A stretch of 64,000 nucleotides of DNA from an uncultured delta proteobacterium. GTDB lineage: Bacteria > Desulfobacterota > WTBG01 > CAIYCZ01 > CAIRTM01. The notes under the pieces were generated by a model that was given only the letters and a program-made list of their open reading frames with translations, had not been told where the DNA came from and did no database searches. This document shows positions 1,297 to 36,072 of this stretch, in pieces. Within the stretch, counting starts at the first letter, position 1, and every line of letters begins with the position of its first letter. The stretch lies in NCBI GenBank assembly GCA_903881505.1, contig CAIRTM010000091.1, positions 2,281-66,280 of the forward strand, read 5' to 3'. Made by a program: the position numbers and the translations under genes.

Positions 1297-3753
1297 ATGC
1301 TGCGACGGCCGTCTGCCGTGCTCGCGCTTGCTTACGGCGCGGGCATTTTCATTGAACGCTATTACCCCGTATCCAGCCGGGCTCTCCTTGGAGCAGGCGC
1401 AGGCGCGCTTGTTCTGGCGCTTGCCTGCGTGTGCCTGCGCCGCGCAACCACAGGCGCGGCTGCGGTTGTACTGCTCGCCGCTGTCCTGGGCGGCCTTGCC
1501 TACGCGCCCTTCCACGATCTGCCCGCATCCGTCAAACAGCTTGAGGCCTGGCTGCACAGGCCCGTTTTCGTCGAAGCCGGGGTCAGGCGCGTTGAACCGC
1601 TTGCCTCAGGCGCGCTCAGGCTGACGCTCGACTATGACAGCATTGAAACCGCTGATGAACAGCTTGCGTGCAGCGGCCGCATGCAGGCAACCCTGCAAAA
1701 AGCTTCCCGTGAGTACCGCTACGGACAGCGCCTGCGCTTGAGCTGCCGTTTGCGGCGCCCGCGCAATTTCAACAACCCGGGCGGCTTCGATTATGAGCGC
1801 TTTCTGGCGCATCGCGCCATATACGTCACCGCCTTCCTGGCCGATGACCGCGGCGTCATCGTACTGCGCGAAAAAGCAGGGCGGCATTTGCTGCGCGGCC
1901 TTGAGCGCTATCGCTCCGCGCTGCGCCGCCTGATCTGCGAACATCTTGATGCGCCTGAGCGCGACCTTGTGCTGGCGCTTCTGCTGGGTGAAAAACAAAC
2001 TCTGGATGCGCAGATTAAAGACCGGTTTGCCCGTTTGGGCGTCGCGCATCTGCTGGCGATTTCAGGGCTGCACATCGGCATCGTGTACGGCCTGGCGTTC
2101 GCGCTGGCCTGCTTTCTGCTGCGGCGGCTCCCGCGTCTGTTTCTCTATGTCGTTCTCTGGAAGGCGGCTGCCGTGCTTGCGCTCGTGCCGGTTGCCGTAT
2201 ACTGTTGCATCGCCGGCCTTCAGATTCCCACCCTGCGCTCCGGTATCATGATAGCGGCCTGTATCGCCTGCCTGCTGATGAACCGGCGCCAGGACGCCCT
2301 CAACGCACTCGGCCTGGCCTGTGCTGCCATCCTCGTATGGATGCCGGTCTCGCTGTTTGAAATTTCATTTCAGCTCTCGTTCGGGGCGGTTCTGTTCCTC
2401 ATTCTGTACGCAGCACCCGCGCAGAAGCTGATTTCGCTCATCGAGGGGGCTGATGCCGGGCGCAGCCGGCCTGCGGCGCTGCGGATGTTCCGGTTCCTGG
2501 CCGGAACCCTGGCTGCGTCGGTGATTGCCTCCGCTGCCACCGCGCCGCTCACTGCCCTGTATTTCCAGCAGCTTTCCCTTGCAGGCATACTTTCCAACTG
2601 TATTCTGATTCCCGCGATCGGGTTCGGTGCCGTGCCCTGCGCGCTTGGGGCGGCCGTGCTGCTTCCGCTGAGCGAAACCGCCTCAGCCGGGCTTTTGCAC
2701 ACAGCTGCGCTCATCCTGGATCAGTCCCTGGTGTGGATCGGCTGCTGGTCTGAGATTCCCATGGTATGCGCACGGGTCGCGCCGCCTTCGGCTGGGGCAA
2801 TGGCCGCCTGTTACGCAGCGCTGACGCTTGTGCCGCTGTGCCTGCGCAAGCGCCGCATTGCGTGCGCCTGCCTTCTGTGCGCTGCGGCTGTCGCGCTGTG
2901 GCTGTGGCCGCAGGACAGCCGGCATGAAGGCTGCCTGCGCGTAACATTTCTGGATGTGGGCCACGGCGATGCGGCCGTCATTGAGTTTCCGCAGGGCCGC
3001 GTCATGCTGATCGACAGCGGGGGGGTGCGCTCGGACCGGTTTGACACGGGCGAGTCGATTGTCGTGCCGGCCCTGCACGCGATGGGTGTCCTGGATATTG
3101 CGTGGCTGGTGATCAGCCATGCGCATCATGATCACATGGCAGGAATGCCGGCGGTTATGGCGGCTTTTAAGGCCGCGGAATTGTGGGTGCCTTCAGACGA
3201 CTGTCGAGACCCCTTTTTCACATCGATTATCCATGATGCCCGCAGGAAGGGTGTCGCCGTCCGGGCCCTCAACAGCGCATCGCAACCGGTCATTATTGAC
3301 GGCGCACGGGTTGAGTTTTTGAGCCCTGATCCTTCCCGGGCGGGCGGTGCCCGGGCGTACAATGACGTAAATGACAGCTCCCTTGTCATCAAAATCAGCT
3401 ACGGCGCTCATGCGTTTCTGTTTGCCGGCGATATCGGGGCGCGGCAGGAGCAGGCATTGCTGGGAAAACCCGCCGATCTGAGGGCGCAGGTGCTCAAGGT
3501 TGCGCATCACGGCAAGCGCGGATCGAGCACGCCCGTGTTTCTGGATGCGGTGGAGCCTGAATGTGCGGTCTTCAGCTGCCGCCCCTCTGCCGGTCACGAC
3601 CTGCCCGGCGATGTTGTGGCCCGCTACCGGGAGCGCTCTGTCCTGCAGCTGCGCACCGATGCGCACGGCGCCATCCGTTTCATCAGCGACGGCGGCCGCC
3701 TTGAAATACATACGTTTCTGCCGCACGGAAAATTTACCGCGGTCCGGCATTAA
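1297..3753 (+). CDS. comEC: DNA uptake competence protein ComEC/Rec2
   Basis: Motifs NPGGFDYERFL, GVAHLLAISGLHIG, SFQLSF; C-terminal MBL domain with FLDVGHGD, SHAHHDH, LKVAHHG. Start moved to ATG 1297, after the repeat cluster. Confidence 0.93.
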   Translation: MLRRPSAVLALAYGAGIFIERYYPVSSRALLGAGAGALVLALACVCLRRATTGAAAVVLLAAVLGGLAYAPFHDLPASVKQLEAWLHRPVFVEAGVRRVEPLASGALRLTLDYDSIETADEQLACSGRMQATLQKASREYRYGQRLRLSCRLRRPRNFNNPGGFDYERFLAHRAIYVTAFLADDRGVIVLREKAGRHLLRGLERYRSALRRLICEHLDAPERDLVLALLLGEKQTLDAQIKDRFARLGVAHLLAISGLHIGIVYGLAFALACFLLRRLPRLFLYVVLWKAAAVLALVPVAVYCCIAGLQIPTLRSGIMIAACIACLLMNRRQDALNALGLACAAILVWMPVSLFEISFQLSFGAVLFLILYAAPAQKLISLIEGADAGRSRPAALRMFRFLAGTLAASVIASAATAPLTALYFQQLSLAGILSNCILIPAIGFGAVPCALGAAVLLPLSETASAGLLHTAALILDQSLVWIGCWSEIPMVCARVAPPSAGAMAACYAALTLVPLCLRKRRIACACLLCAAAVALWLWPQDSRHEGCLRVTFLDVGHGDAAVIEFPQGRVMLIDSGGVRSDRFDTGESIVVPALHAMGVLDIAWLVISHAHHDHMAGMPAVMAAFKAAELWVPSDDCRDPFFTSIIHDARRKGVAVRALNSASQPVIIDGARVEFLSPDPSRAGGARAYNDVNDSSLVIKISYGAHAFLFAGDIGARQEQALLGKPADLRAQVLKVAHHGKRGSSTPVFLDAVEPECAVFSCRPSAGHDLPGDVVARYRERSVLQLRTDAHGAIRFISDGGRLEIHTFLPHGKFTAVRH

Positions 3754-8184: not shown

Positions 8185-8375
8185 GTGCCTAAAAAATCGA
8201 TTCGTGCCGGATTGAAATGAGGGCAGGTGCGGCACTGCCGCTTCCTGCCGGGGTGTGTGCAGAATAGCAAAGCGCGCCCAATCAATCAAGCATGCAATCG
8301 GCCTTGCGCGCACGCGGGTTTTGCCCTAGACTGGGGCCTGTCAGGCAGGACATGCCTGCGCAGGGGGCTGCACGG

Positions 8376-9050
8376 ATGGCGGTATCGCTGAAAAAATACC
8401 TTATATGCGCGGTGATGCTGTGCCTGGCCGGCGCTGCCCGGGCCGGGACCTGGCAGGGAACCTGCGTGAGCGTTCTGGACGGGGACTCGCTGATGATCAC
8501 GGGCGCAGCCGGCAAAAAGGAAGTCAGGCTCTACGGCATTGACACGCCCGAGTTCGACCAGGCCTTCGGCAGGCAGGCCCGCAGCTGCACGCGCGGCCTT
8601 GTCCTCGACAAAAAGGTAACGGTAGAACCCTTTGAAATCGACAAGTACGGCCGCACGGTCGCAAAGGTGCGCACAGCTGAGGGGTGCGTAAATGAGCTCC
8701 TGGTCGCGCGGGGCTGTGCCTGGGTGTACCGGCGGTATTGCAGGCCCGGGGACATCACGGCATGGGCTGCCCTTGAGGAAAAAGCCCGGCAGCAGGGCCT
8801 GGGCCTGTGGTCGCAGCCAGGCCCGGTGCCCCCGTGGGATTTCCGGAGCACAAAGCGCGCGCAGGAAAACAAACAGGTTAAAAAAACCGGCGCCGCAGCG
8901 GGCTTCTATCACGGCAATACCGGTTCGCGCGTGTTCCACGCGCCCGGCTGCACGGCCTATGATTGTAAGAACTGCACTGCGGCTTTCAACAGCCTCGGCG
9001 AGGCCCTGCGCGCGGGCTACAGCCCCTGTAAAAAGTGCATCGATAATTAA
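8376..9050 (+). CDS. Secreted thermonuclease (SNase) with C-terminal Ada-type metal-binding domain
   Basis: Signal peptide, VLDGDSL, VRLYGIDTPE, DKYGRTVA; C-terminal FHAPGC...GYSPCKKC. Confidence 0.88.
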   Translation: MAVSLKKYLICAVMLCLAGAARAGTWQGTCVSVLDGDSLMITGAAGKKEVRLYGIDTPEFDQAFGRQARSCTRGLVLDKKVTVEPFEIDKYGRTVAKVRTAEGCVNELLVARGCAWVYRRYCRPGDITAWAALEEKARQQGLGLWSQPGPVPPWDFRSTKRAQENKQVKKTGAAAGFYHGNTGSRVFHAPGCTAYDCKNCTAAFNSLGEALRAGYSPCKKCIDN

Positions 9051-9080
9051 ACAGCCCTGATGTATGAGCGGACCCGTCAT

Positions 9081-9809
9081 ATGATCACATCCGCGGCCAA
9101 CGCCAAAATCAAGCACCTCCACAAGCTGATCAGCGACAGGAAATACCGCTATCAGGAGAAACAGTTCGTCGTCGAAGGCTATCGCCAGCTTGAAGGCGCC
9201 CGGGCCGTGCTCGGTGTATACGTGTCAAGCGCGGCGAAGGCGCCGGACCTCGGCGTGCCGCCCGAAAACATGCATATCGTCGAGGAGAAAATTTTTAACC
9301 GGCTGGCTGATACCGAAAACACGCAGGGCGTGCTGGCCGTGTGCGCGCTTGCCTTCGAGACTGCACTCAGCGCAGGCAAAAACTATGTGCTGCTGGACGG
9401 CCTGCAGGACCCCGGCAATGCCGGCACCATTATCCGCACGGCCGCGGCCTTCGGCTACGGCGGCGTCATTTTCACCCCCGGCTGCGTTGACCCGTTTTCC
9501 CCCAAGGTGGTGCGCGCAACCATGGGCGCCATATTCGCGTGCGCCATTGTCCTGCTGGATGATTTTCAGCAGCTGCAGGGCTGCCATGTCGTTTCGGCCG
9601 ATATCGGCGGGCCCGACATCGCAGCCGTGAAGGTTGAGCGCCCTCACATACTTGCCATCGGCAGCGAGGCCCGGGGCTTCTCGGCCGGGCTGCGGCCCTG
9701 GATCAGCCGGACCGTGACCATTCCGTTTCAAACCGGCTCGGTTAATTCGCTCAACGCGGCCGTGGCCGCGGGCATTGCTATGTATGCGCTGACCAAGGGC
9801 ACGCAGTGA
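9081..9809 (+). CDS. TrmH/SpoU family RNA methyltransferase
   Basis: LQDPGNAGTIIRTA, GSEARG, SLNAAVAAGI SPOUT motifs. Alternative start at 9060. Confidence 0.9.
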   Translation: MITSAANAKIKHLHKLISDRKYRYQEKQFVVEGYRQLEGARAVLGVYVSSAAKAPDLGVPPENMHIVEEKIFNRLADTENTQGVLAVCALAFETALSAGKNYVLLDGLQDPGNAGTIIRTAAAFGYGGVIFTPGCVDPFSPKVVRATMGAIFACAIVLLDDFQQLQGCHVVSADIGGPDIAAVKVERPHILAIGSEARGFSAGLRPWISRTVTIPFQTGSVNSLNAAVAAGIAMYALTKGTQ

Positions 9810-9989
9810 CGCCTAAAACCGGAGCCGCCTTGGCCCGCGGCCGGGCGTGCGCGGTTGTGCGGCAGGGGGTGAAGGGCGGAGCTGCGCCTGTCATGAGTGT
9901 GTAGGTCCAGGCCAGAAACCTCACTTTATCCTCAGCGCCGCTGCGCGAGCTATCGCCTTTCATCTAAAACCTTGCCTCCCGCTGAGGCG

Positions 9990-10141
9990 CAGGTGCGTTT
10001 TGCCGCCGAAGTAGTGGATATAGTCCATTGACAACAGGTCTGCTCTGTGCGATAGGCATAGCGGTGGTAGCGCAGCACCTCGCGCACCTGATCCATTAAT
10101 CTAAGATTCTGGTAGGGGCGGAACTTCGGCTTATTTTCCAT
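9990..10141 (-). pseudogene. intI: Integron integrase remnant (N-terminal domain only, frameshifted)
   Basis: LMDQVREVLRYHRYAYRTEQTCCQW is the IntI N-terminal signature. Homology continues in another frame as YIHYFGGKTH, then ends. No catalytic domain. Divergent from the cassette array. Confidence 0.85.
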
Positions 10142-10204
10142 CTTTGTGCCTTAATATCGTAATAAGTGGAATTTGAAGTCCTTTTTTGTAATACGTGGAA
10201 TGTT

Positions 10205-10261
10205 CTTCCATCTATATGGGCTGATATGATGGAAGTTTCCCCGCCTATTACACGGTTAGTC
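10205..10261 (+). other. Putative attI site, crossover G10255/T10256
   Basis: GTTAGTC (10255-10261) is the exact reverse complement of the first attC R'' GACTAAC. It lies 114 nt from the intI start. The left boundary is approximate. Confidence 0.75.
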
Positions 10262-10276
10262 CTAAAGGATTTAATA

Positions 10277-10804
10277 ATGAACAGAAATGAATGGACCGAA
10301 CTAAGTCTAAAAATATTTGCACTATTTCTTTTTTTTAAATTCCTTACCGCAGTTCCAAATTTCATCAACATGCCTGTAATTGCTGAAAAGTATGCTGGCT
10401 CGTGGGCTATGCCAGGGGCAATTACAGGAGTCTTAGTTTCTTTGGTGTTAGCAATGGTCGTTTGGCGACTTGCCCCTGTACTGTCAAAAGCAATATGGAG
10501 AAAAACGGAGCCGCCACAAGCTATCTCAAATCCGAGTATGGATGAAATTCAAGCAGCTATTTTTTCCGCCATTGGTCTGTTCGTTTTAATAACCGCCTTG
10601 CCCGGCATCTCAGAATATCTGGTTTTAATCAACCAGACATCATCTCCGTTTCAATCAGAATCCGCCTTGGAATTTAAAGCAAAAATTGAGCTGGCAACTA
10701 TGTTGGTGCAATCTGCAATAGGATTATTCCTGCTGTTCGGCTCAAGGGGGCTTGTTGCTGTGATAAAAATGGTTCGGAATCTAGGGTTAAAAAAGCAAGA
10801 CTAA
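10277..10804 (+). CDS. Cassette 1: uncharacterised membrane protein, 175 aa, about 4 TM
   Basis: ATG 10277 with AAGGA upstream, inside the cassette boundary. Four hydrophobic stretches. Stop TAA lies within R'' of attC1. Confidence 0.8.
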   Translation: MNRNEWTELSLKIFALFLFFKFLTAVPNFINMPVIAEKYAGSWAMPGAITGVLVSLVLAMVVWRLAPVLSKAIWRKTEPPQAISNPSMDEIQAAIFSAIGLFVLITALPGISEYLVLINQTSSPFQSESALEFKAKIELATMLVQSAIGLFLLFGSRGLVAVIKMVRNLGLKKQD

Positions 10805-10866
10805 CCATCGGCCTGAGAGGGACGCGGCAAAAAATCGCGCCGTGCCCCTCATCAGTAACGTTCGCA
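10799..10866 (+). repeat. attC site 1
   Basis: GACTAAC-N5-GCCTGAG...CTCATC-N6-GTTCGCA with imperfect palindromic core. Confidence 0.9.
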
Positions 10867-10878
10867 AAGGAGAACAAG

Positions 10879-11361
10879 ATGAAGAGCTATTTTAAGATAG
10901 GTCGTGATATCGTTGTCGGCAAAGGATTGAGTGCAAAGCATTGGGCTGGTCCGATTATTTTCGGGAAGGAGGCAATTTATCTCTTACCCAATGACGTATC
11001 TGTGAAATCACTCAGGGCTGGATACGACTCAGCATCGGCAGCCGCAGGGATGCTTGGAGGCATGATTGGTGGTGTTATAGCAGGAGCAATGCAAAGCAAA
11101 GCCGGATCAAAATCAACATGGCAAGAACACATCGTTCAGATCAATGAACTTCCACAAAATGTTCTATTGAATCCGGATTGGCCCATAAAAAAAGGTAAGC
11201 GACCGGTAATTCTGATCAAAAAAAGCGATATTGATAAGTTCGAACGTTCTGGTGGCAAGCTTTTGGTTGAAGCGTATGGTGACACCTTCAAACTGGGGCT
11301 TAAGCTATTCGGTCGTGGCAAAGCTATTGAAACTATAAGAAGCCTTGAATGGTCGGTATAG
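10879..11361 (+). CDS. Cassette 2: uncharacterised 160 aa protein with glycine-zipper-like segment
   Basis: RBS AAGGAG; AAAGMLGGMIGGVIAGAM segment; lies between attC1 and attC2. Confidence 0.8.
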   Translation: MKSYFKIGRDIVVGKGLSAKHWAGPIIFGKEAIYLLPNDVSVKSLRAGYDSASAAAGMLGGMIGGVIAGAMQSKAGSKSTWQEHIVQINELPQNVLLNPDWPIKKGKRPVILIKKSDIDKFERSGGKLLVEAYGDTFKLGLKLFGRGKAIETIRSLEWSV

Positions 11362-11407
11362 TTGCGATCCATTTTTGAAATCCGGGGGCACCATACTAAT
11401 TAATTTT

Positions 11408-11475
11408 TGCCAACACCCGGCTTGAGAGTGACGCGGAAAAAAATCGCGCCGCGCCCCTCATCCTTAACGTTCGGT
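11408..11475 (+). repeat. attC site 2
   Basis: TGCCAAC-N5-GCTTGAG...CTCATC-N6-GTTCGGT. Confidence 0.9.
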
Positions 11476-11482
11476 TAATAAA

Positions 11483-11908
11483 ATGAAATCCATAATGAAC
11501 ACATTGGTATGGTGTATGGCAGTTGCGGTGGGCGGGATGCTCTGCATTATTCTTCCACCGTATCTGATACCCGGAGGAATTCAGACCATATACACAGAGT
11601 CATTATTTCCTGTCTTCAGAACTGCATGGGAGAATCTTAAAATTCTACCAACCCTGGGGTGCTTTTTAGGCCTTGGTTTTCTTCTCGGCCTTGCACAACC
11701 CACAAGATGGTTGCTTCTTGGGTGCACGACGATAGCAGCGCCACCTATTCTTGCGATTTGCGAAATGATTGTGTCTCCGACTTCTCACAATCTCTGGCCG
11801 CTGGAGTTCCTTCTTTACGGCGTTGTAAACTCCCCCTCTCTTCTTGGGGCATTTCTCGGGTCCAGAATAAGGAAGATACAAAAAAATGAAACCGAACCAT
11901 CCGCTTGA
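11483..11908 (+). CDS. Cassette 3: uncharacterised membrane protein, 141 aa
   Basis: About four hydrophobic segments, SHNLWPLE loop. The ORF reads into attC3. Confidence 0.8.
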   Translation: MKSIMNTLVWCMAVAVGGMLCIILPPYLIPGGIQTIYTESLFPVFRTAWENLKILPTLGCFLGLGFLLGLAQPTRWLLLGCTTIAAPPILAICEMIVSPTSHNLWPLEFLLYGVVNSPSLLGAFLGSRIRKIQKNETEPSA

Positions 11909-11956
11909 GAGGAACGCGGCAAAAACCAGCCGCGCCCCTCGGCCTTAGCGTTAAAC
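11891..11956 (+). repeat. attC site 3
   Basis: ACCGAAC-N5-GCTTGAG...CTCGGC-N6-GTTAAAC. Confidence 0.9.
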
Positions 11957-11968
11957 GCAGAAAATAAT

Positions 11969-12307
11969 ATGGCACTTGACTACAAATATTTCCGACCGAT
12001 AAAAGCCGCTGGTATATGCTTCATCATTTGCGGTGCAATATCTGCATTAATGTATATGTCCCTCCTTAAAAATCCTGATTTTGACACTGTTTTCCGCATC
12101 TTCGTTTTAGTTAATACGTTTTGGTATCTCGTTATGGGTATAGGAATAGTATTACAAAATAAATGGGGGTATTATTTGCTTAAAGGATTCCTCTACTTTA
12201 TGGTTTTAGGTTTTCCAATTGGTACATATTTTGGAGTTAAATCATTACGATATCTACGGGAGCACGACATAAAAAGCTATTTTGCAAAACAGGCAATAGA
12301 TATCTAG
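11969..12307 (+). CDS. Cassette 4: uncharacterised membrane protein, 112 aa
   Basis: Three to four hydrophobic segments, AT-rich codons, between attC3 and attC4. Confidence 0.8.
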   Translation: MALDYKYFRPIKAAGICFIICGAISALMYMSLLKNPDFDTVFRIFVLVNTFWYLVMGIGIVLQNKWGYYLLKGFLYFMVLGFPIGTYFGVKSLRYLREHDIKSYFAKQAIDI

Positions 12308-12333
12308 TGAATTATTAAATTGAGCTGAAAAGC

Positions 12334-12399
12334 GTTTAACAATCGGCTTGAGAGGGACGCGGCAAAGAGCCGCCGCGCCTCTTAACTTTCGCGTTGTAC
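12334..12399 (+). repeat. attC site 4
   Basis: GTTTAAC-N5-GCTTGAG...CTTAAC-N6-GTTGTAC. Confidence 0.9.
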
Positions 12400-12432
12400 G
12401 AGTATAGTAATTAACGTAGCAGGAACGTTCAT

Positions 12433-12789
12433 GTGAAATACAAGGACTTGAACCCGCAAGATAGCTATTTCCACCCGTGGACCACATACAGAAAGCGAAA
12501 TAGGCTCGTCGCAATACTGTCTATAGCTTTTGTGCCAGCCATGTTACTGATCGGCATTCCATTAGGCTCCGTGGTTGGTGAAAACAAGGGCATGTTCATA
12601 GTCTTCTTCGTATGGGCTGCGCTGATTATGATATTCATCGATTATTCAGTTTTTTGGCATTGCCCGCGTTGCGGGAAGTCCTTTCATATGGACTTTGGGC
12701 GGTACGTGAATCCAATGGCCAAAAACTGCGTTCATTGTAAACTGCCGAAATGGAGTCCTAATGGTTCCGATCGGCAGCATGAGAAATGA
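12433..12789 (+). CDS. Cassette 5: two-TM protein with C-terminal zinc ribbon
   Basis: GTG start with AGGA upstream; two TM segments, then CPRC...CVHC. Confidence 0.78.
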   Translation: MKYKDLNPQDSYFHPWTTYRKRNRLVAILSIAFVPAMLLIGIPLGSVVGENKGMFIVFFVWAALIMIFIDYSVFWHCPRCGKSFHMDFGRYVNPMAKNCVHCKLPKWSPNGSDRQHEK

Positions 12790-12794
12790 AAATC

Positions 12795-12862
12795 GTACAA
12801 CAATCGTCTAGAGAGGAGCGCGGCAAAAAAACGCGCCGCGCTCCTCATCTTTGACATTCGGC
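12795..12862 (+). repeat. attC site 5, R' mutated from GTT to ATT
   Basis: GTACAAC-N5-TCTAGAG...CTCATC-N6-ATTCGGC. Confidence 0.85.
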
Positions 12863-12886
12863 AATGCATAGCACGAGGATGAAAGC

Positions 12887-13225
12887 ATGATTAAGAAATA
12901 TAACAATATCAGCCTGGCATTCGGGATTCCGGGATTGATTGTTCAGACGTTCGGCGTAATCAGCCAGATTACGATAATCAGCCTGGTGGGCGCGGTTCTT
13001 CTGATAGTCGGACTTGGCTATTATGCAAAATCAAAAGGCAGGCACCCTGCATGGTGCCTATTAGGGCTGCTGTCAATCCTGGGAATAATTATTCTTGCGC
13101 TGCTCCAGGATAAGTCCTCCGAGACAGGCACGCAGGACATACGCCCATTCACAAAAATACTGCTAGTGCTTTTTATCCTCATAATTCTGGCTTTGATAGG
13201 TATCGCCATGATGGCCGGCAATTGA
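12887..13225 (+). CDS. Cassette 6: uncharacterised membrane protein, 112 aa
   Basis: RBS GAGGA; four hydrophobic segments, YAKSKGRHPAW loop. Confidence 0.8.
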   Translation: MIKKYNNISLAFGIPGLIVQTFGVISQITIISLVGAVLLIVGLGYYAKSKGRHPAWCLLGLLSILGIIILALLQDKSSETGTQDIRPFTKILLVLFILIILALIGIAMMAGN

Positions 13226-13235
13226 AAAAACTGCC

Positions 13236-13292
13236 GCCGAAAAGCTTGTTGTTGTACGAATATGAACAATGAGCAACAAACCGCTTGAGAGC
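13236..13292 (+). repeat. Degenerate attC remnants at the array end
   Basis: GCCGAAA (expected R'' GCCGAAC) sits 8 nt before GTTGTAC. A left half-site GAGCAAC-AAACC-GCTTGAGAG follows at 13271 with no right arm. Confidence 0.6.
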
Positions 13293-13372
13293 GCCCCCGG
13301 GGAACCGCAACCAAAGCCGGGCTCCTGCCCAGACCGGCTCTTTCGGGCATTGAAGCTGAAAACGCACAGGGA

Positions 13373-14155
13373 CTATGGCTGCAGAAAATGTTTTTTAATA
13401 AGCGTATCTTTTTCCGCTTTGCCCGGATAGCTTATTAAAACCGCCCGATATTTACCCTTAAAGACAAAAAGGCTTCCGGCGGCGGCGCCGATGATGCCAT
13501 GCCTGTGAATGACGGCGCCGATATCCTCAAGGCTTCCGGCGCCCCCGAGCACTGTCATGGGAATACTTACGGAATCGCGCACCTTCTGCAGCAAGTGCAG
13601 GTCATAGCCCTTCATCACGCCGTCATTATCAATGGAGTTGACAACAATTTCGCCTGCGCCACATCTTTCCATCTCGGCAGCAAAATCAGCCGGGTGCTTT
13701 CCGGTATTCCGAGAGCCGTTGTGCGTCCAAAGCTCATATTTGCCGCTCAGTGTCTTTTTCTTCACATCTATAACGACCACAATGCTCTGCCTGCCGACTC
13801 TTTCGGCCATACTGGTCACGATTGCAGGATTTTCAAGTGCGCTGGAGCTTATGGCGATTTTTTCAACACCCAGGCTGAAGATGCGGTGCGCCTGATCAAC
13901 TGTTTTTATCCCGCCTCCGTAGCAAAAGGGCATCCGGCATTCAACCGCGAGGTTTTCTATCATTTTATAGTCCGGCTCCCTGCCCTCCATTGTCGCGTCA
14001 ATGTCCAGGACAATCAGCTCGTCAACCTCCTTTTCATTGAAAATCTTCACGGCGTTAATCGGATCACCCACATATTTGTGGTCCTTGAACTTTGTGGTTT
14101 TAACAAGCCCTTTGTTATGCACCAGCAGGCAGGGAATGATTCTGGGGTGTAACAT
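13373..14155 (-). CDS. HisF2/WbuZ (AglZ)-type cyclase-like protein, glycan modification subfamily
   Basis: PRIIPCLL, GLVKT, YVGDPINAVKIFNEKEVDEL and GSLFVFKGKYRAVLISYP are typical of the polysaccharide-cluster HisF paralogues. Confidence 0.8.
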   Translation of the reverse strand: MLHPRIIPCLLVHNKGLVKTTKFKDHKYVGDPINAVKIFNEKEVDELIVLDIDATMEGREPDYKMIENLAVECRMPFCYGGGIKTVDQAHRIFSLGVEKIAISSSALENPAIVTSMAERVGRQSIVVVIDVKKKTLSGKYELWTHNGSRNTGKHPADFAAEMERCGAGEIVVNSIDNDGVMKGYDLHLLQKVRDSVSIPMTVLGGAGSLEDIGAVIHRHGIIGAAAGSLFVFKGKYRAVLISYPGKAEKDTLIKKHFLQP

Positions 14156-14446
14156 AGTCACATAAAAGGTAAGAAGGTTAGAGGTTTAGCGGCAAACCTT
14201 TTCAGGGTTCATTCCGACGGAATTCAATAGCTCTTTACTTTTTCAAGCCTGTCCGGGGCAGCCCGTTGCGGGAACGATGGCAGCGCCCGCCGAAACATTC
14301 GCCCGCAACCGGCAGGACCGCCATAATGGTAAGACATGCACGCCTGTTTAGTCAACTTATTGCTGCGGTAGAATCGGCAGCATTTTTATCGTCTGGCGAC
14401 GGGGCATACAGCGGAACGGCATGCACAAGGGTTCAATTGCCTGTCC

Positions 14447-16300
14447 CTATCCATGTTCCTGGCGGCCGGGCCAGATGAGCCGCATTTCGCAGGCTGTGCA
14501 GTCAAACTCAAGCCGGCAGGCGGCGCCTTCGGGGCCGGTGAGGAAAAGCGGCTCCTCAAAACCCTCGCGTTCAAGAGCTTTGCCGCACAGGCCCAGTTCA
14601 CGCCGCAGGCAGTAGCGCGAACGCATAACGATTGTTCCCGGCCGCACCGGCCCGGTCTCGGCGGCCCGGGCAATGTCCTTAACGCCGTGGCGGAGGTAGA
14701 ACGCACGGGCTTTCTCATTGAGAACATTGGTCTCGAAGCTGAGGCATGTTTGATAGTACGGAACGCTGTTTTTGAGAGCACCGCCTGTGATGCGCGGCCG
14801 AAGGCGCGCCCGTTCGCTGCGCAGGCTATCGATAAAATCGCGCCGCAGGCTGTTGAGCGCGGCAACCGGAATAAACCATGGCCGGGCCAGCTGTATTTCA
14901 AGGTTCTTACACCTGAACTCGGTGCCCCCGAATTTGGCCAGCTGGCCCGCGCATGTGCTCAGGGCGCGCTCGGCCTGCCGGGCAGGCTTTTTCGGGCTTT
15001 CGATGCAGGCCTGGGCGCATACCCCGTCCTGATCGCGCCCGTTCAATATAAAGCCATCCGGTGTTTCCGTGAATGAGCAGGCAACTGCGATGGTTCTCGC
15101 GGGCCGTGCCTGCCGAAGCGCCTTTTGAAAGGCGCGGTCAAGGTTGCGGTAGATGCGCGTGCCCGCACGTATTCCGGTCATGCGCTCCGGGAATACGCGC
15201 CCCTTCCCGGCAGTTCTGATACGGGTTCCCTGCAGCCGTCCGTCCGCGTCGAAAAAACAGATGCCGTCTCCGGGAGAAAGCCCCGCGGCACCGTCAAGGG
15301 CAAACGAGTCGTTGCGACAGGCCGTGACCTTCCCGATCATCTCGCCCCGTGACTTGGGCGAATCAAGCGAGGCGATACGCGAATCCGGGGTGATGAAAAA
15401 ATCGGTAAATCCGCGGTTGAATGATTTTGCCGGGTCGGGGGTGAATCCCGGATCGGATGTCCCGGATGAAGAGCGCGCAAACGCGCATCCGTCAAGAACA
15501 CGGTCAAGCTCTCTGCGGTAATACGCGACAACATTCATGACATAGCCGGTGTTTTTCAGGCGGCCTTCGATTTTAAGGGACGTGATCCCGGCCTGCAGCA
15601 GATCGCCAAGACAGCGTGAACGGTTGAGGTCCTTAAGTGAGAGCAGGTAGCGGTCATGCCCGACAGCCCGGCCGGTTTTGTCCTGCAGATGGTAGCGCAG
15701 GCGGCAGGGCTGGGCGCAGCAGCCGCGATTGCCGCTGCGGCCGCCGGCGGCATAGCTCAGGTAACAGCGTCCGCTGCGGCCCACGCACAGGGCGCCGTGC
15801 ACAAAGCATTCAAGCTCAACGCTGGTTTCCCGGCGGATGGCGCGAATTTCTTCAAGGCCGAGTTCGCGCGCCAGAATCACGCGCTGAAAGCCGACCTGCT
15901 CCAGGAAGCGGACCTGCTCAACGCTGGAATTATCCATCTGTGTGCTGGCGATAAGGGCCAGCGGCGGAAGATCGCACTCCAACAGGCCCGCGTCCTGTAT
16001 GATCAGGCCGTCAATGCCCGCCTGATAAAGCCGATTGATCAGCGTGACGGCTCCGGGGAGCTCATCGTCGCGCAGGATTGTATTGAGCGCAACATAGACG
16101 CGTGACCAGTAGCGGTGTGCGTATGCGGCAAGCGCCTCGATGTCGGAGACGCTGTTGCCGGCCTCTTGCCGCGCGCTGAATGCTTCAGCGCCGATATAGA
16201 CGGCGTCGGCTCCGCAATTAATGGCTGCAATGCCGGCGGCTCGGTCACGCGCCGGCGCAAGCAGTTCTATTTTTTGAGGCTGTGATGCTGCAGTGTTCAT
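14447..16300 (-). CDS. U32 family protein, long RlhA-like form with C-terminal extension
   Basis: ELLAPA, GADAVYIG, FVHGALCVGRSGRC, NRGCCAQPCR, SLKIEGR. Confidence 0.88.
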   Translation of the reverse strand: MNTAASQPQKIELLAPARDRAAGIAAINCGADAVYIGAEAFSARQEAGNSVSDIEALAAYAHRYWSRVYVALNTILRDDELPGAVTLINRLYQAGIDGLIIQDAGLLECDLPPLALIASTQMDNSSVEQVRFLEQVGFQRVILARELGLEEIRAIRRETSVELECFVHGALCVGRSGRCYLSYAAGGRSGNRGCCAQPCRLRYHLQDKTGRAVGHDRYLLSLKDLNRSRCLGDLLQAGITSLKIEGRLKNTGYVMNVVAYYRRELDRVLDGCAFARSSSGTSDPGFTPDPAKSFNRGFTDFFITPDSRIASLDSPKSRGEMIGKVTACRNDSFALDGAAGLSPGDGICFFDADGRLQGTRIRTAGKGRVFPERMTGIRAGTRIYRNLDRAFQKALRQARPARTIAVACSFTETPDGFILNGRDQDGVCAQACIESPKKPARQAERALSTCAGQLAKFGGTEFRCKNLEIQLARPWFIPVAALNSLRRDFIDSLRSERARLRPRITGGALKNSVPYYQTCLSFETNVLNEKARAFYLRHGVKDIARAAETGPVRPGTIVMRSRYCLRRELGLCGKALEREGFEEPLFLTGPEGAACRLEFDCTACEMRLIWPGRQEHG

Positions 16301-34893: not shown

Positions 34894-36072
34894 TTAGATA
34901 TCCCTTCGCCGGTAAAGCGCGCAAAAGCGATCGATCATCGTATCAAAGCGGTACTTCGTTTCAGCGATATGGCGCCCGTACGCGCCCAGTTCCCGGGCCT
35001 TGCCCGGGTCACTCAGCAGGCTCTCAAGCGCGGCTGCAAGCGCCGCGGCGTCATCGGGCGGCACCAGCAGTCCGCTGCGGCCATGGGTAACAAGATCGCT
35101 GTTGCCGCTGACCGCAGTGGCAACCACCGGCAGGCCGCAGGCCATGGCCTCAAGCACGGAGTTGGACATGCCCTCATGGAACGAGGCCATGACAAAGATA
35201 TCGGCACATTGATACCAAGGCACTATATCCGTTTGCGCCTGCCGGAGCATGACGCGCCCGGCGGTGCCGAGCTCTGCCGCCAGACGCTCAAGCCGCGCAT
35301 GTTCAGGACCGCTGCCGATAATAGCGAGTACGGGCGCGCTGGTGCTTAGCTGCGCGTGCGCCTTCAGCAAAACGGCCAGGCCCTTTTCCGGTGAAAGGCG
35401 GCCGGTATACAGAATAAGCGGCGCAGGCGGAAGATTCAGCGCATGGCGCAGCTGCTCCCGGCCCTGCGCCGGACGGTACGTATCCGTATCGACTCCGTTG
35501 GGGATGCACACGGTGCGGCCGGCCGGATACGCGATCCGGGAAACCTCGTGCTGCATCCCGGGGGTCAGCACGACTATGGCTGAAGCACATCGGCTCAGCC
35601 TGAGAAAAAGCCGGCCCCAGGGGCTTTGCCTGTGCCGGCCGACATCACCGCCCCTGCCGCCGCCGGACAGATGCAGAAACGCGCGCTTGCCCAGCAGCCG
35701 TCCGATGATAATGGCCGCGGCGGAGCTGTGACCGACCTGAAAGGCATGCACAGCCTGGTAGCGGGTTCGCTGCAGGATCAAAAAAAGCACGGCCCGGGAG
35801 ATAAAAACGCAGGCCCCGAGGCCTTTTATGCGCGGGCAGGCAAAGCGATAGATGACCACCCCGGAGCGTTCCTGCCGGTGGGCGTATCCGGCGCACAGGC
35901 GGCTGGTAAGAATGGTCACGGCCATGCCGCGCTCTGCCAGCGCGTCGGCCAGGGCGGCCACCCGCTTTTCGAGACCGCCGGTAAAGGGGTAAAAATAGCG
36001 GGAGACGAAAACGACCTCGGGCCTGTGCGGCTGTGCTGCGGCAGTCTCAGGAGCCATGCCCGTTGATTTCAT
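34894..36072 (-). CDS. Glycosyltransferase family 4
   Basis: GGLE, IPNGVD, GRLSPEKG, EGMSNSVLEAMACG. Confidence 0.9.
   Translation of the reverse strand: MKSTGMAPETAAAQPHRPEVVFVSRYFYPFTGGLEKRVAALADALAERGMAVTILTSRLCAGYAHRQERSGVVIYRFACPRIKGLGACVFISRAVLFLILQRTRYQAVHAFQVGHSSAAAIIIGRLLGKRAFLHLSGGGRGGDVGRHRQSPWGRLFLRLSRCASAIVVLTPGMQHEVSRIAYPAGRTVCIPNGVDTDTYRPAQGREQLRHALNLPPAPLILYTGRLSPEKGLAVLLKAHAQLSTSAPVLAIIGSGPEHARLERLAAELGTAGRVMLRQAQTDIVPWYQCADIFVMASFHEGMSNSVLEAMACGLPVVATAVSGNSDLVTHGRSGLLVPPDDAAALAAALESLLSDPGKARELGAYGRHIAETKYRFDTMIDRFCALYRRRDI

Follow-up and report, generated by a model that had tools for sequence, protein, structure and literature searches.

The window analysed here is a 64,000-nucleotide stretch of contig CAIRTM010000091.1 from an uncultured delta proteobacterium (assembly GCA_903881505.1). 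Between the stub of an integrase gene and a truncated recombination site at 13291 it holds what is, very probably, the decayed platform of a chromosomal integron of a Syntrophales-like deltaproteobacterium. In integrons, the integrase IntI recombines the folded bottom-strand attC site of a circular cassette with attI, and cassettes stack behind a common promoter. Here, the 5' end of intI lies on the minus strand, followed by an attI ending at GTT and by plus-strand cassettes with complementary boundaries (Table 1). A first-pass annotation, made from the letters alone, had described this divergent intI–attI–cassette layout, with six cassettes between 9990 and 13292. The layout was borne out, and both limits fall a few bases from the end of the stub and the cut in the last attC site. 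Five cassettes are complete; the sixth has an attC site that is cut after its left arm.

Integrase stub and attI

The 63-aa open reading frame (ORF) at 9950–10141 on the minus strand is the N-terminus of an integron integrase. A tblastn search was carried out with the 339-aa IntI of the congener G002, an intact protein scoring 425 bits on TIGR02249 (cut-off 265). Residues 1–41 aligned at 88% identity, in keeping with the intI remnant of the first-pass annotation, and residues 41–57 at 76% in a second frame. By blastn, 9985–10200 is 90% identical to contig G002:C80. The Pfam profile PF13495 gave 19 bits on the stub, under its cut-off of 27. The left end of the stub was read from an alignment of stub modules, and no further intI sequence was found between 9972 and the stop codon, at 9809, of a SpoU/TrmH methylase gene. 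Bases 9984–10006 resemble an attC core in inverted orientation, which raised the question of an inverted attC at the break point. Since they also code for the conserved FGGKTH of the intact G002 IntI, the likeness is most likely a coincidence.

The interval between the stub and cassette 1 is recognizable as an attI with its crossover at G|TT. It carries direct repeats TAATA(A/C)GTGGAAT at 10160–10172 and 10189–10201 (read from the sequence) and an inverted repeat, CTTCCATC/GATGGAAG, at 10205–10212 and 10228–10235. The core GTTAGTC at 10255–10261 is the exact reverse complement of GACTAAC, the R'' of cassette 1. An alignment of the module, with twelve copies drawn from three genomes, shows similarity reaching ...TATTACAC(T/G)GTT and ending there at once wherever the site is kept.

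A family of attC sites

The array forms a low-GC islet, with GC content of 0.34–0.52 between 10000 and 13300 in a contig that is elsewhere at 0.56–0.71 (0.58–0.71 on the left side and 0.56–0.65 from 14200 on). Six single plus-strand ORFs of 112–175 aa, all low in GC, each precede a palindrome. Five of the palindromes are complete, imperfect and 66–68 bp long from R'' to R', with positions read from the sequence. The first-pass annotation had singled out these palindromes, their common core and the single AT-rich, same-strand ORFs between them, and each point was confirmed. A repeat search returned three families: D1 (three copies of 64 nt), D2 (two copies of 74 nt) and D3 (four copies of the 18-nt left arm, one at 13274–13291). 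The pattern AACNNNNNKCYWGAGAG matched six times in the window, always on the plus strand and between 10803 and 13291. Dinucleotide shuffles predict 0.01 matches and none of 100 reached six; the palindromes are therefore not a product of chance. Complete and partial attC sites lie on the strand opposite the intI stub, where a complete integron as defined by Cury et al. 2016 has at least one.

The attC status of these sites was judged directly from defining properties, namely the boundary rule, folding, mobility of the unit and context elsewhere. A once-circular cassette must, under the boundary rule, begin with the reverse complement of its own R'', read from the G left in the preceding site; the boundary 7-mer is this G plus the first six bases of the cassette. 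The R''/R' pairing, whose failure would have refuted the first-pass reading, holds: the 7-mer agrees with R'' at all seven bases in cassettes 1, 3, 4 and 5 and at six of seven in cassette 2, and it sits exactly at the R' of the preceding site. With GTT held fixed, each exact match has a chance of about 1 in 256. AAC is present in R'' at all five sites and GTT in R' at four. The rule fails at the partial attC6, where R'' is GAGCAAC and cassette 6 starts with ATTCGGC.

Folding was assessed next. Nivina et al. 2016 (PMC5027507) describe the attC bottom strand as a hairpin whose L'' arm bears extrahelical bases, together with a terminal loop and a central spacer that stays unpaired. Folded bottom strands of the five sites form hairpins with a central spacer and a loop of 8–12 nt, and in every one the unpaired bases of the 3' (L''–R'') arm outnumber those of the 5' arm by exactly two, the asymmetry that extrahelical bases would be expected to produce. 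In attC2 and attC3 the bottom strand is more stable than the top strand, via G-T pairs. When eight family members were aligned, standard pairs made up 83.1% of the 136 cells of the proposed hairpin. This drops to 28–51% when the partner is slid by 1–3 columns, and there is one compensatory change, from G-C to A-U. A covariance model, R1, built from these same sites matched the window five times at 71.9–84.9 bits, with the next best match at 17.3 bits; these scores show only uniqueness within the window. Judged by these properties, the five palindromes would behave as attC sites.

Several observations weigh against the reading as an integron array, the first of them concerning these sites. The two extra unpaired bases looked for in the folding check are present at all five sites, but minimum-energy folds place them mostly in the spacer and not at the canonical extrahelical positions. 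Folding energies are modestly below those of shuffles at three sites (z = -1.4 to -2.3; -3.2 and -6.0 at the other two). In pairing, the sites do no better than shuffles, 227 of 500 of which reach the same percentage of paired cells. The sites resemble each other too closely to covary, which makes this control uninformative. The strict RYYYAAC consensus is fitted by R'' in only one of five sites, and attC5 carries ATT where GTT is expected. An Rfam scan of 9000–14500 at E <= 1 gave no match.

The lack of any matching Rfam family would also suit a different kind of intergenic repeat, such as repetitive extragenic palindromic (REP)-like elements, terminators or the ends of miniature inverted-repeat transposable elements. 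Each site is an intergenic, GC-rich hairpin, a terminator-like signal is flagged at one of them on the minus strand, and REP-like repeats are otherwise present in these genomes. Yet boundary complementarity is not expected for REP elements or terminators, an intI stub and attI lie directly upstream, and no T-run follows the stems on the plus strand. Moreover, the homology of one unit is bounded exactly at GTT crossover points, and the family occurs upstream of intact intI genes in relatives. We consider such a repeat barely credible as the origin of the five palindromes, and read them as attC sites in what follows.

Cassettes

Table 1. Positions in the window of the integrase stub, recombination sites, candidate promoter (Pc, the common cassette promoter) and cassettes.
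Feature	Positions	Strand	Details
intI stub	9972–10141	-	About 57 codons of the 5' end, frameshifted near codon 41; remaining gene deleted
Candidate Pc	10028–10056	+	TTGACA 10028–10033; 17-nt spacer ending TGC; GATAGG 10051–10056
attI region	10142–10261	+	Direct repeats, inverted repeat, core GTTAGTC; crossover 10255/10256
Cassette 1	10256–10860 (605 bp)	+	ORF 10277–10804, 175 aa, membrane-like; attC1; R1 84.9 bits; boundary 7/7
attC1	10799–10866	+	Complete palindrome
Cassette 2	10861–11469 (609 bp)	+	ORF 10879–11361, 160 aa; attC2; R1 79.0 bits; boundary 6/7
attC2	11408–11475	+	Complete palindrome
Cassette 3	11470–11950 (481 bp)	+	ORF 11483–11908, 141 aa, membrane-like; attC3; R1 71.9 bits; boundary 7/7
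attC3	11891–11956	+	Complete palindrome
Cassette 4	11951–12393 (443 bp)	+	ORF 11969–12307, 112 aa, membrane-like; attC4; R1 72.8 bits; boundary 7/7
attC4	12334–12399	+	Complete palindrome
Cassette 5	12394–12856 (463 bp)	+	ORF 12433–12789, 118 aa, GTG start; attC5; R1 80.7 bits; boundary 7/7
attC5	12795–12862	+	Complete palindrome; R' is ATT, not GTT
Cassette 6, incomplete	12857–13291	+	ORF 12887–13225, 112 aa, membrane-like; attC left arm only
attC6, partial	13271–13291	+	Left arm only; AAC-N5-GCTTGAGAG at 13275–13291

The complete units span 443–609 bp and hold one ORF each. Searches of the six cassette proteins against Pfam, NCBIfam and PADLOC returned nothing above a curated cut-off, and the ESM Atlas placed the proteins of cassettes 1 and 2 in unnamed clusters only. 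A bPH/GRAM resemblance of the cassette 2 protein in the ESM Atlas scores under 0.9 and is a lead only. The cassette 5 protein has a membrane segment plus CxxC...CxxC, with weak zinc-ribbon Pfam matches below cut-off. Several of the products look like small membrane proteins.

Cassette 3 is the only part of the array with a DNA relative among the 40 relatives searched. Its counterpart, on contig G015:C334 in another genus, is 86% identical. Homology starts at the crossover GTTCGGT and stops in the attC of the cassette, with unrelated neighbours on either side. Cassette 3 has thus moved as a whole unit, bounded by GTT crossover points.

No full R1 match was found at the attC of cassette 6. Beyond 13291 its left arm gives way to unrelated GC-rich DNA, and a possible collapsed attC site, GCCGAAAAGCTTGTTGTTGTAC, can be read from the sequence at about 13237–13258. 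The right half of attC6 was sought past the next gene, at 14160–14450, with nothing convincing found. This gene (13373–14161, minus strand, GC near 0.5) abuts the cut array end and is a solitary member of the AglZ/HisF2 acetamidino-modification family (392 bits, cut-off 310), with no HisH-like partner alongside and no DNA match in either congener. The GC-rich DNA past attC6 forms its 3' end.

Distribution of the family and search for an intact integrase

The attC family was next followed through the genome and its relatives. It had been taken in the first pass to be the array's own, which did not hold. With nhmmer, 14 sites were found at E <= 1e-7 on nine contigs of the same genome (next match E = 0.0017), and with R1 at E <= 0.001 the family was found in 10 of the 40 relatives, including both congeners. 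As at the present locus, the genome-wide copies lie in low-GC DNA (all 14 sites at 0.33–0.50, genome 0.583) and most sit behind a short same-strand ORF. At nine family sites elsewhere in the genome the boundary rule is exact in three and has one mismatch in a fourth. Integron integrases above cut-off occur in 8 of 41 genomes searched. In 81 loci, comprising 80 around intact IntI relatives and the locus of a class 1 plasmid, R1 gave seven matches at E <= 0.01, all of them upstream of intI and on the opposite strand. The closest named IntI relatives are from Smithella, Syntrophus, Syntrophales and 'Deltaproteobacteria' metagenome-assembled genomes, in agreement with the anaerobic deltaproteobacterial host proposed in the first pass.

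Further short arrays are carried by contigs C136 and C85 of the same genome. More than one attC type thus occurs within the arrays of this genome: C85 carries at 9720–9790 a second, unrelated-looking type, a long GC-rich palindrome that ends in GTTCAGC. The cassette after it encodes a methyltransferase and has an attC of the present family. On C57 (4577–4830), a stub and attI are followed by a GC-rich patatin-like gene and not by a low-GC cassette. This gene may be an old, ameliorated cassette, or the platform may have no array. The rplS region exists in two near-identical versions, C15 (1–1300) and C136 (28900–29867). On C15, rplS is followed by an intI stub, attI and a cassette, and on C136 by REP-like repeats and a two-attC array; a second integron locus seems to be present in the assembly in the form of two strain variants. 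REP-like GC-rich palindromes, one with GTAGGGTGCGCCGTGCGCACC, occur at about 29100–29500 of C136, in G001 (loci L025 and L028) and at 3500–3720 of G002:C73. They recur beside stub modules and arrays and directly abut the stub G001:C4b.

An intact intI next to the array is absent, and no ORF of the window passes TIGR02249; both count against a complete integron. A weak TIGR02249 match at about 35038–35193 was considered as the lost body of intI, but it falls within a glycosyltransferase gene, in a different frame, and tblastn with IntI does not return it. In the whole genome (149 contigs, 96.8% complete), none of seven TIGR02249 matches passes the cut-off, the best reaching 83.8 bits. By tblastn, the assembly contains four N-terminal stubs only, on C91, C57, C15 and C62. 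An intact gene may simply be unassembled.

These data bear on whether the platform is still used, with an intact IntI from an unassembled part of the genome or another replicon serving attI and the attC sites in trans. In favor of such service, G002 has two intact intI genes and two stubs in one genome. At the same locus G001 carries a staphylococcal nuclease gene, trmH and then a stub with an attC array, but shares no cassette with the present array at the DNA level. If the stub was truncated before the two lineages split, cassette turnover would have needed IntI in trans. The stub and attI core are also better conserved than the third codon positions of neighbouring trmH (stub against trmH, 78% against 54% in G001 and 92% against 70% in G002), and arrays are a frequent place for contigs of the assembly to end, as with the 3.7-kb C110. 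Set against this, no intI exceeds the cut-off in an assembly of such completeness, and none was found in G001 at E <= 1e-30, though G001 is 83% complete. In a second study, cassettes 3 and 4 are joined by contigs of run X5, and cassettes 4 and 5 by contigs of runs X3 and X4, in the same order and with no differences. This points to a static array, albeit weakly because contigs drop rare variants. On balance, we regard continued use in trans as unlikely, and favor a decayed platform.

The same-locus stub and array is present in one of the two congeners, G001; G002 contigs break there. The right flank of the array is not conserved. Two genes to the left of the stub, at 8292–9050 on the plus strand, a gene also syntenic in G001 encodes a secreted-looking protein with a staphylococcal-nuclease domain and a C-terminal Ada-type zinc-binding domain.

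The sharp change in composition, with GC falling by about 0.2 at both array borders, could alternatively reflect an assembly or binning artefact that joined foreign low-GC DNA to a high-GC contig. The assembly is fragmented, the two versions of the rplS region mean that more than one strain was collapsed in it, and among the contigs listed no single one spans a border, run X1 aside. Such an artefact is nevertheless very improbable. The array lies inside a 67.7-kb contig with syntenic housekeeping genes on its left, and in G001 the trmH locus is likewise occupied by a stub and an array. Positions 9000–9889 recur without differences in a run X4 contig, and cassettes 1, 2, 4 and 5 are each partly covered by others. 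No joints rearranging the array were found in the contigs of four runs. A joint at 10105–10149 (run X3, side 23) was rejected as a rearrangement, being too short to trust, and loose contig ends at 10801/10802 and 11469–11471 most probably belong to other arrays whose attC sites are nearly the same.

Candidate promoter and recurrence of the stub

A search of the three genomes of the genus with the intact G002 gene identified 11 truncated intI copies at different loci. All keep only the first 113–176 bases of intI (codons 1 to 38–59). At least 10 of the 11 keep attI, with G001:C13 ambiguous in the alignment. The left ends represent at least five distinct junctions, all within about 65 nt upstream of the hexamer TTGACA, which none of the 11 stubs has lost. 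All 12 aligned copies share TTGACAA without change, and the module has no other invariant run of at least 4 nt.

This hexamer would form the -35 element of a candidate Pc inside the stub. When IntI1 from a class 1 plasmid was aligned, the class 1 Pc hexamers fell at intI1 codons 37–39 and 30–31. TTGACA covers the homologous codons 37–38 and is displaced from the class 1 -35 hexamer by no more than 1 nt. The class 1 Pc lies inside the intI coding sequence, and its position in Jove et al. 2010 (PMC2791841) agrees with our plasmid alignment. To be set on the other side, the candidate -10 hexamer GATAGG is poor, though TG precedes it, and a sigma-70 consensus scan of 9800–13500 calls no promoter in the stub or attI. 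The scan returned one site, at 11615–11643 in cassette 3; shuffles give 6.1.

Frame-breaking indels or stop codons within codons 1–38 are present in 8 of the 11 stubs. Identity at codon positions 1, 2 and 3 is 79.5%, 71.7% and 69.7%, with no third-position excess of change, so most stub divergence arose without coding constraint. This test does not separate one old, spread stub from many independent ancient truncations.

We tentatively suggest that the stubs are a selected minimum of the integron platform, in which deletion erodes a dead intI down to the promoter and docking site; on present evidence this is possible rather than probable. The integrase gene would be lost repeatedly, perhaps since it is costly, and the remnants would be integrase-less platforms for expression and docking, servable by an IntI elsewhere in the cell or by an incoming one. 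Alternatively, one old truncated module may have spread by duplication, as tandem stub pairs with shared flanks in G001 would suggest. At G001:C11 (locus L028; 6457–6815 and 7796–8137), stub, attI and one cassette are duplicated in tandem with shared left flanks, the copies being 77% and 80% identical to the intact G002 gene. G001:C4 carries two modules with similar upstream flanks. A class-wide protein search found, among the matches listed, three further N-terminal-only IntI pieces outside the genus (G035, G024 and G021) and also C-terminal-only pieces (G029, G031, G021 and G027), too few among those matches to establish a general bias.

Tandem repetition was also seen just downstream of an intact intI, at G002:C80 (locus L026; 1491–1706 and 2657–3123). 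Units of about 100–113 bp, 80–99% identical, are followed there by a RelE-like and helix-turn-helix gene pair.

Proposed history of the locus

Taking the locus as a decayed platform, the order of events can be sketched as follows. An integrase once encoded here would have inserted promoterless circular cassettes, each with one ORF and one attC, at attI, between G10255 and T10256. From the known integron mechanism, insertion would have proceeded by recombination of attI with the folded bottom strand of attC. Five complete cassettes would have been built in this way, plus a sixth whose attC was presumably cut later by a deletion or replacement at 13291. The integrase gene would then have been lost, except for its frameshifted first 57 or so codons. 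With the integrase decayed, the array is expected to be frozen unless IntI is supplied in trans. The cassettes are probably transcribed from a candidate promoter retained inside the stub.

Comparison with known systems

An integron with a decayed intI is a well-known kind of genomic fossil. Taken alone, the array is one more environmental integron remnant, whose cassettes have no assigned function. It is also a clean, well-delimited example from the Syntrophales group; our literature search found no dedicated study of integrons and attC sites in syntrophs. Should repeated retention of the short stub truly reflect selection for a promoter or docking site, it would offer a general lesson on integron decay and tell how cassette arrays stay expressed after integrase loss.

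The divergent intI–attI–cassette layout is shared with class 1 integrons, as is the position of the candidate -35 to within 1 nt. The congener IntI is 46.3% identical to IntI1 and 47.4% to a class 3 integrase, values that do not make it a class 1, 2 or 3 integrase and that agree with the lineage-specific chromosomal integron proposed in the first pass. Unlike class 1 integrons, the present locus lacks resistance genes and a transposon context, and its candidate -10 hexamer is poor. The attC family also differs, with no R1 match at the class 1 plasmid locus (L118).

Sedentary integrons of Vibrio, such as the V. cholerae superintegron, are likewise chromosomal, with a homogeneous lineage-specific attC family and cassettes of no assigned function. 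Their intIA is intact, their cassettes number from tens to hundreds, and their Pc starts 65 bp upstream of attI (Krin et al. 2014, PMC3948777). The present array, by contrast, has 5–6 cassettes, no integrase and a candidate promoter inside the intI stub, as in class 1. The term sedentary, applied in the first pass, was not upheld: Cury et al. 2016 (PMC4889954) reserve it for integrons that exceed 19 attC sites or occur in 100% of the genomes of a species, and by count the array has five complete sites and one partial.

In the definitions of the same authors, a CALIN is a cluster of two or more attC sites without an integron integrase. The array is by these definitions a CALIN with an intI stub; a complete integron is ruled out because the integrase is only a 57-codon stub. 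The likeness extends to the few cassettes of no assigned function, the lack of a functional intI nearby and co-occurrence with other CALINs in one genome; in Cury et al. 2016 (PMC4889954) 83% of CALINs stay below six attC sites. The difference is that the origin is visible here, with the 57-codon stub and attI still attached. Cury et al. 2016 (PMC4889954) screened for pseudogenes with a C-terminal IntI profile and PF00589 and found them near 15 of 279 CALINs. A screen of this design would miss an N-terminal stub such as the present one. At least some CALINs therefore keep the front end of intI and attI and are overlooked by C-terminal screens; if the stubs are a selected minimum, a whole class would be missed by these standard screens.

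The closest natural parallel is found in Xanthomonas, where chromosomal integrons lie downstream of ilvD and intI has decayed (bioRxiv 10.1101/2025.06.18.660453, where Gillings et al. 2005 is reported as well). The available part of the preprint makes no mention of the multi-locus pattern seen here, in which several stub and attI modules per genome lie at different loci and keep the same short 5' piece. The present array differs further in belonging to another phylum and in its locus, which lies beside trmH/SpoU.

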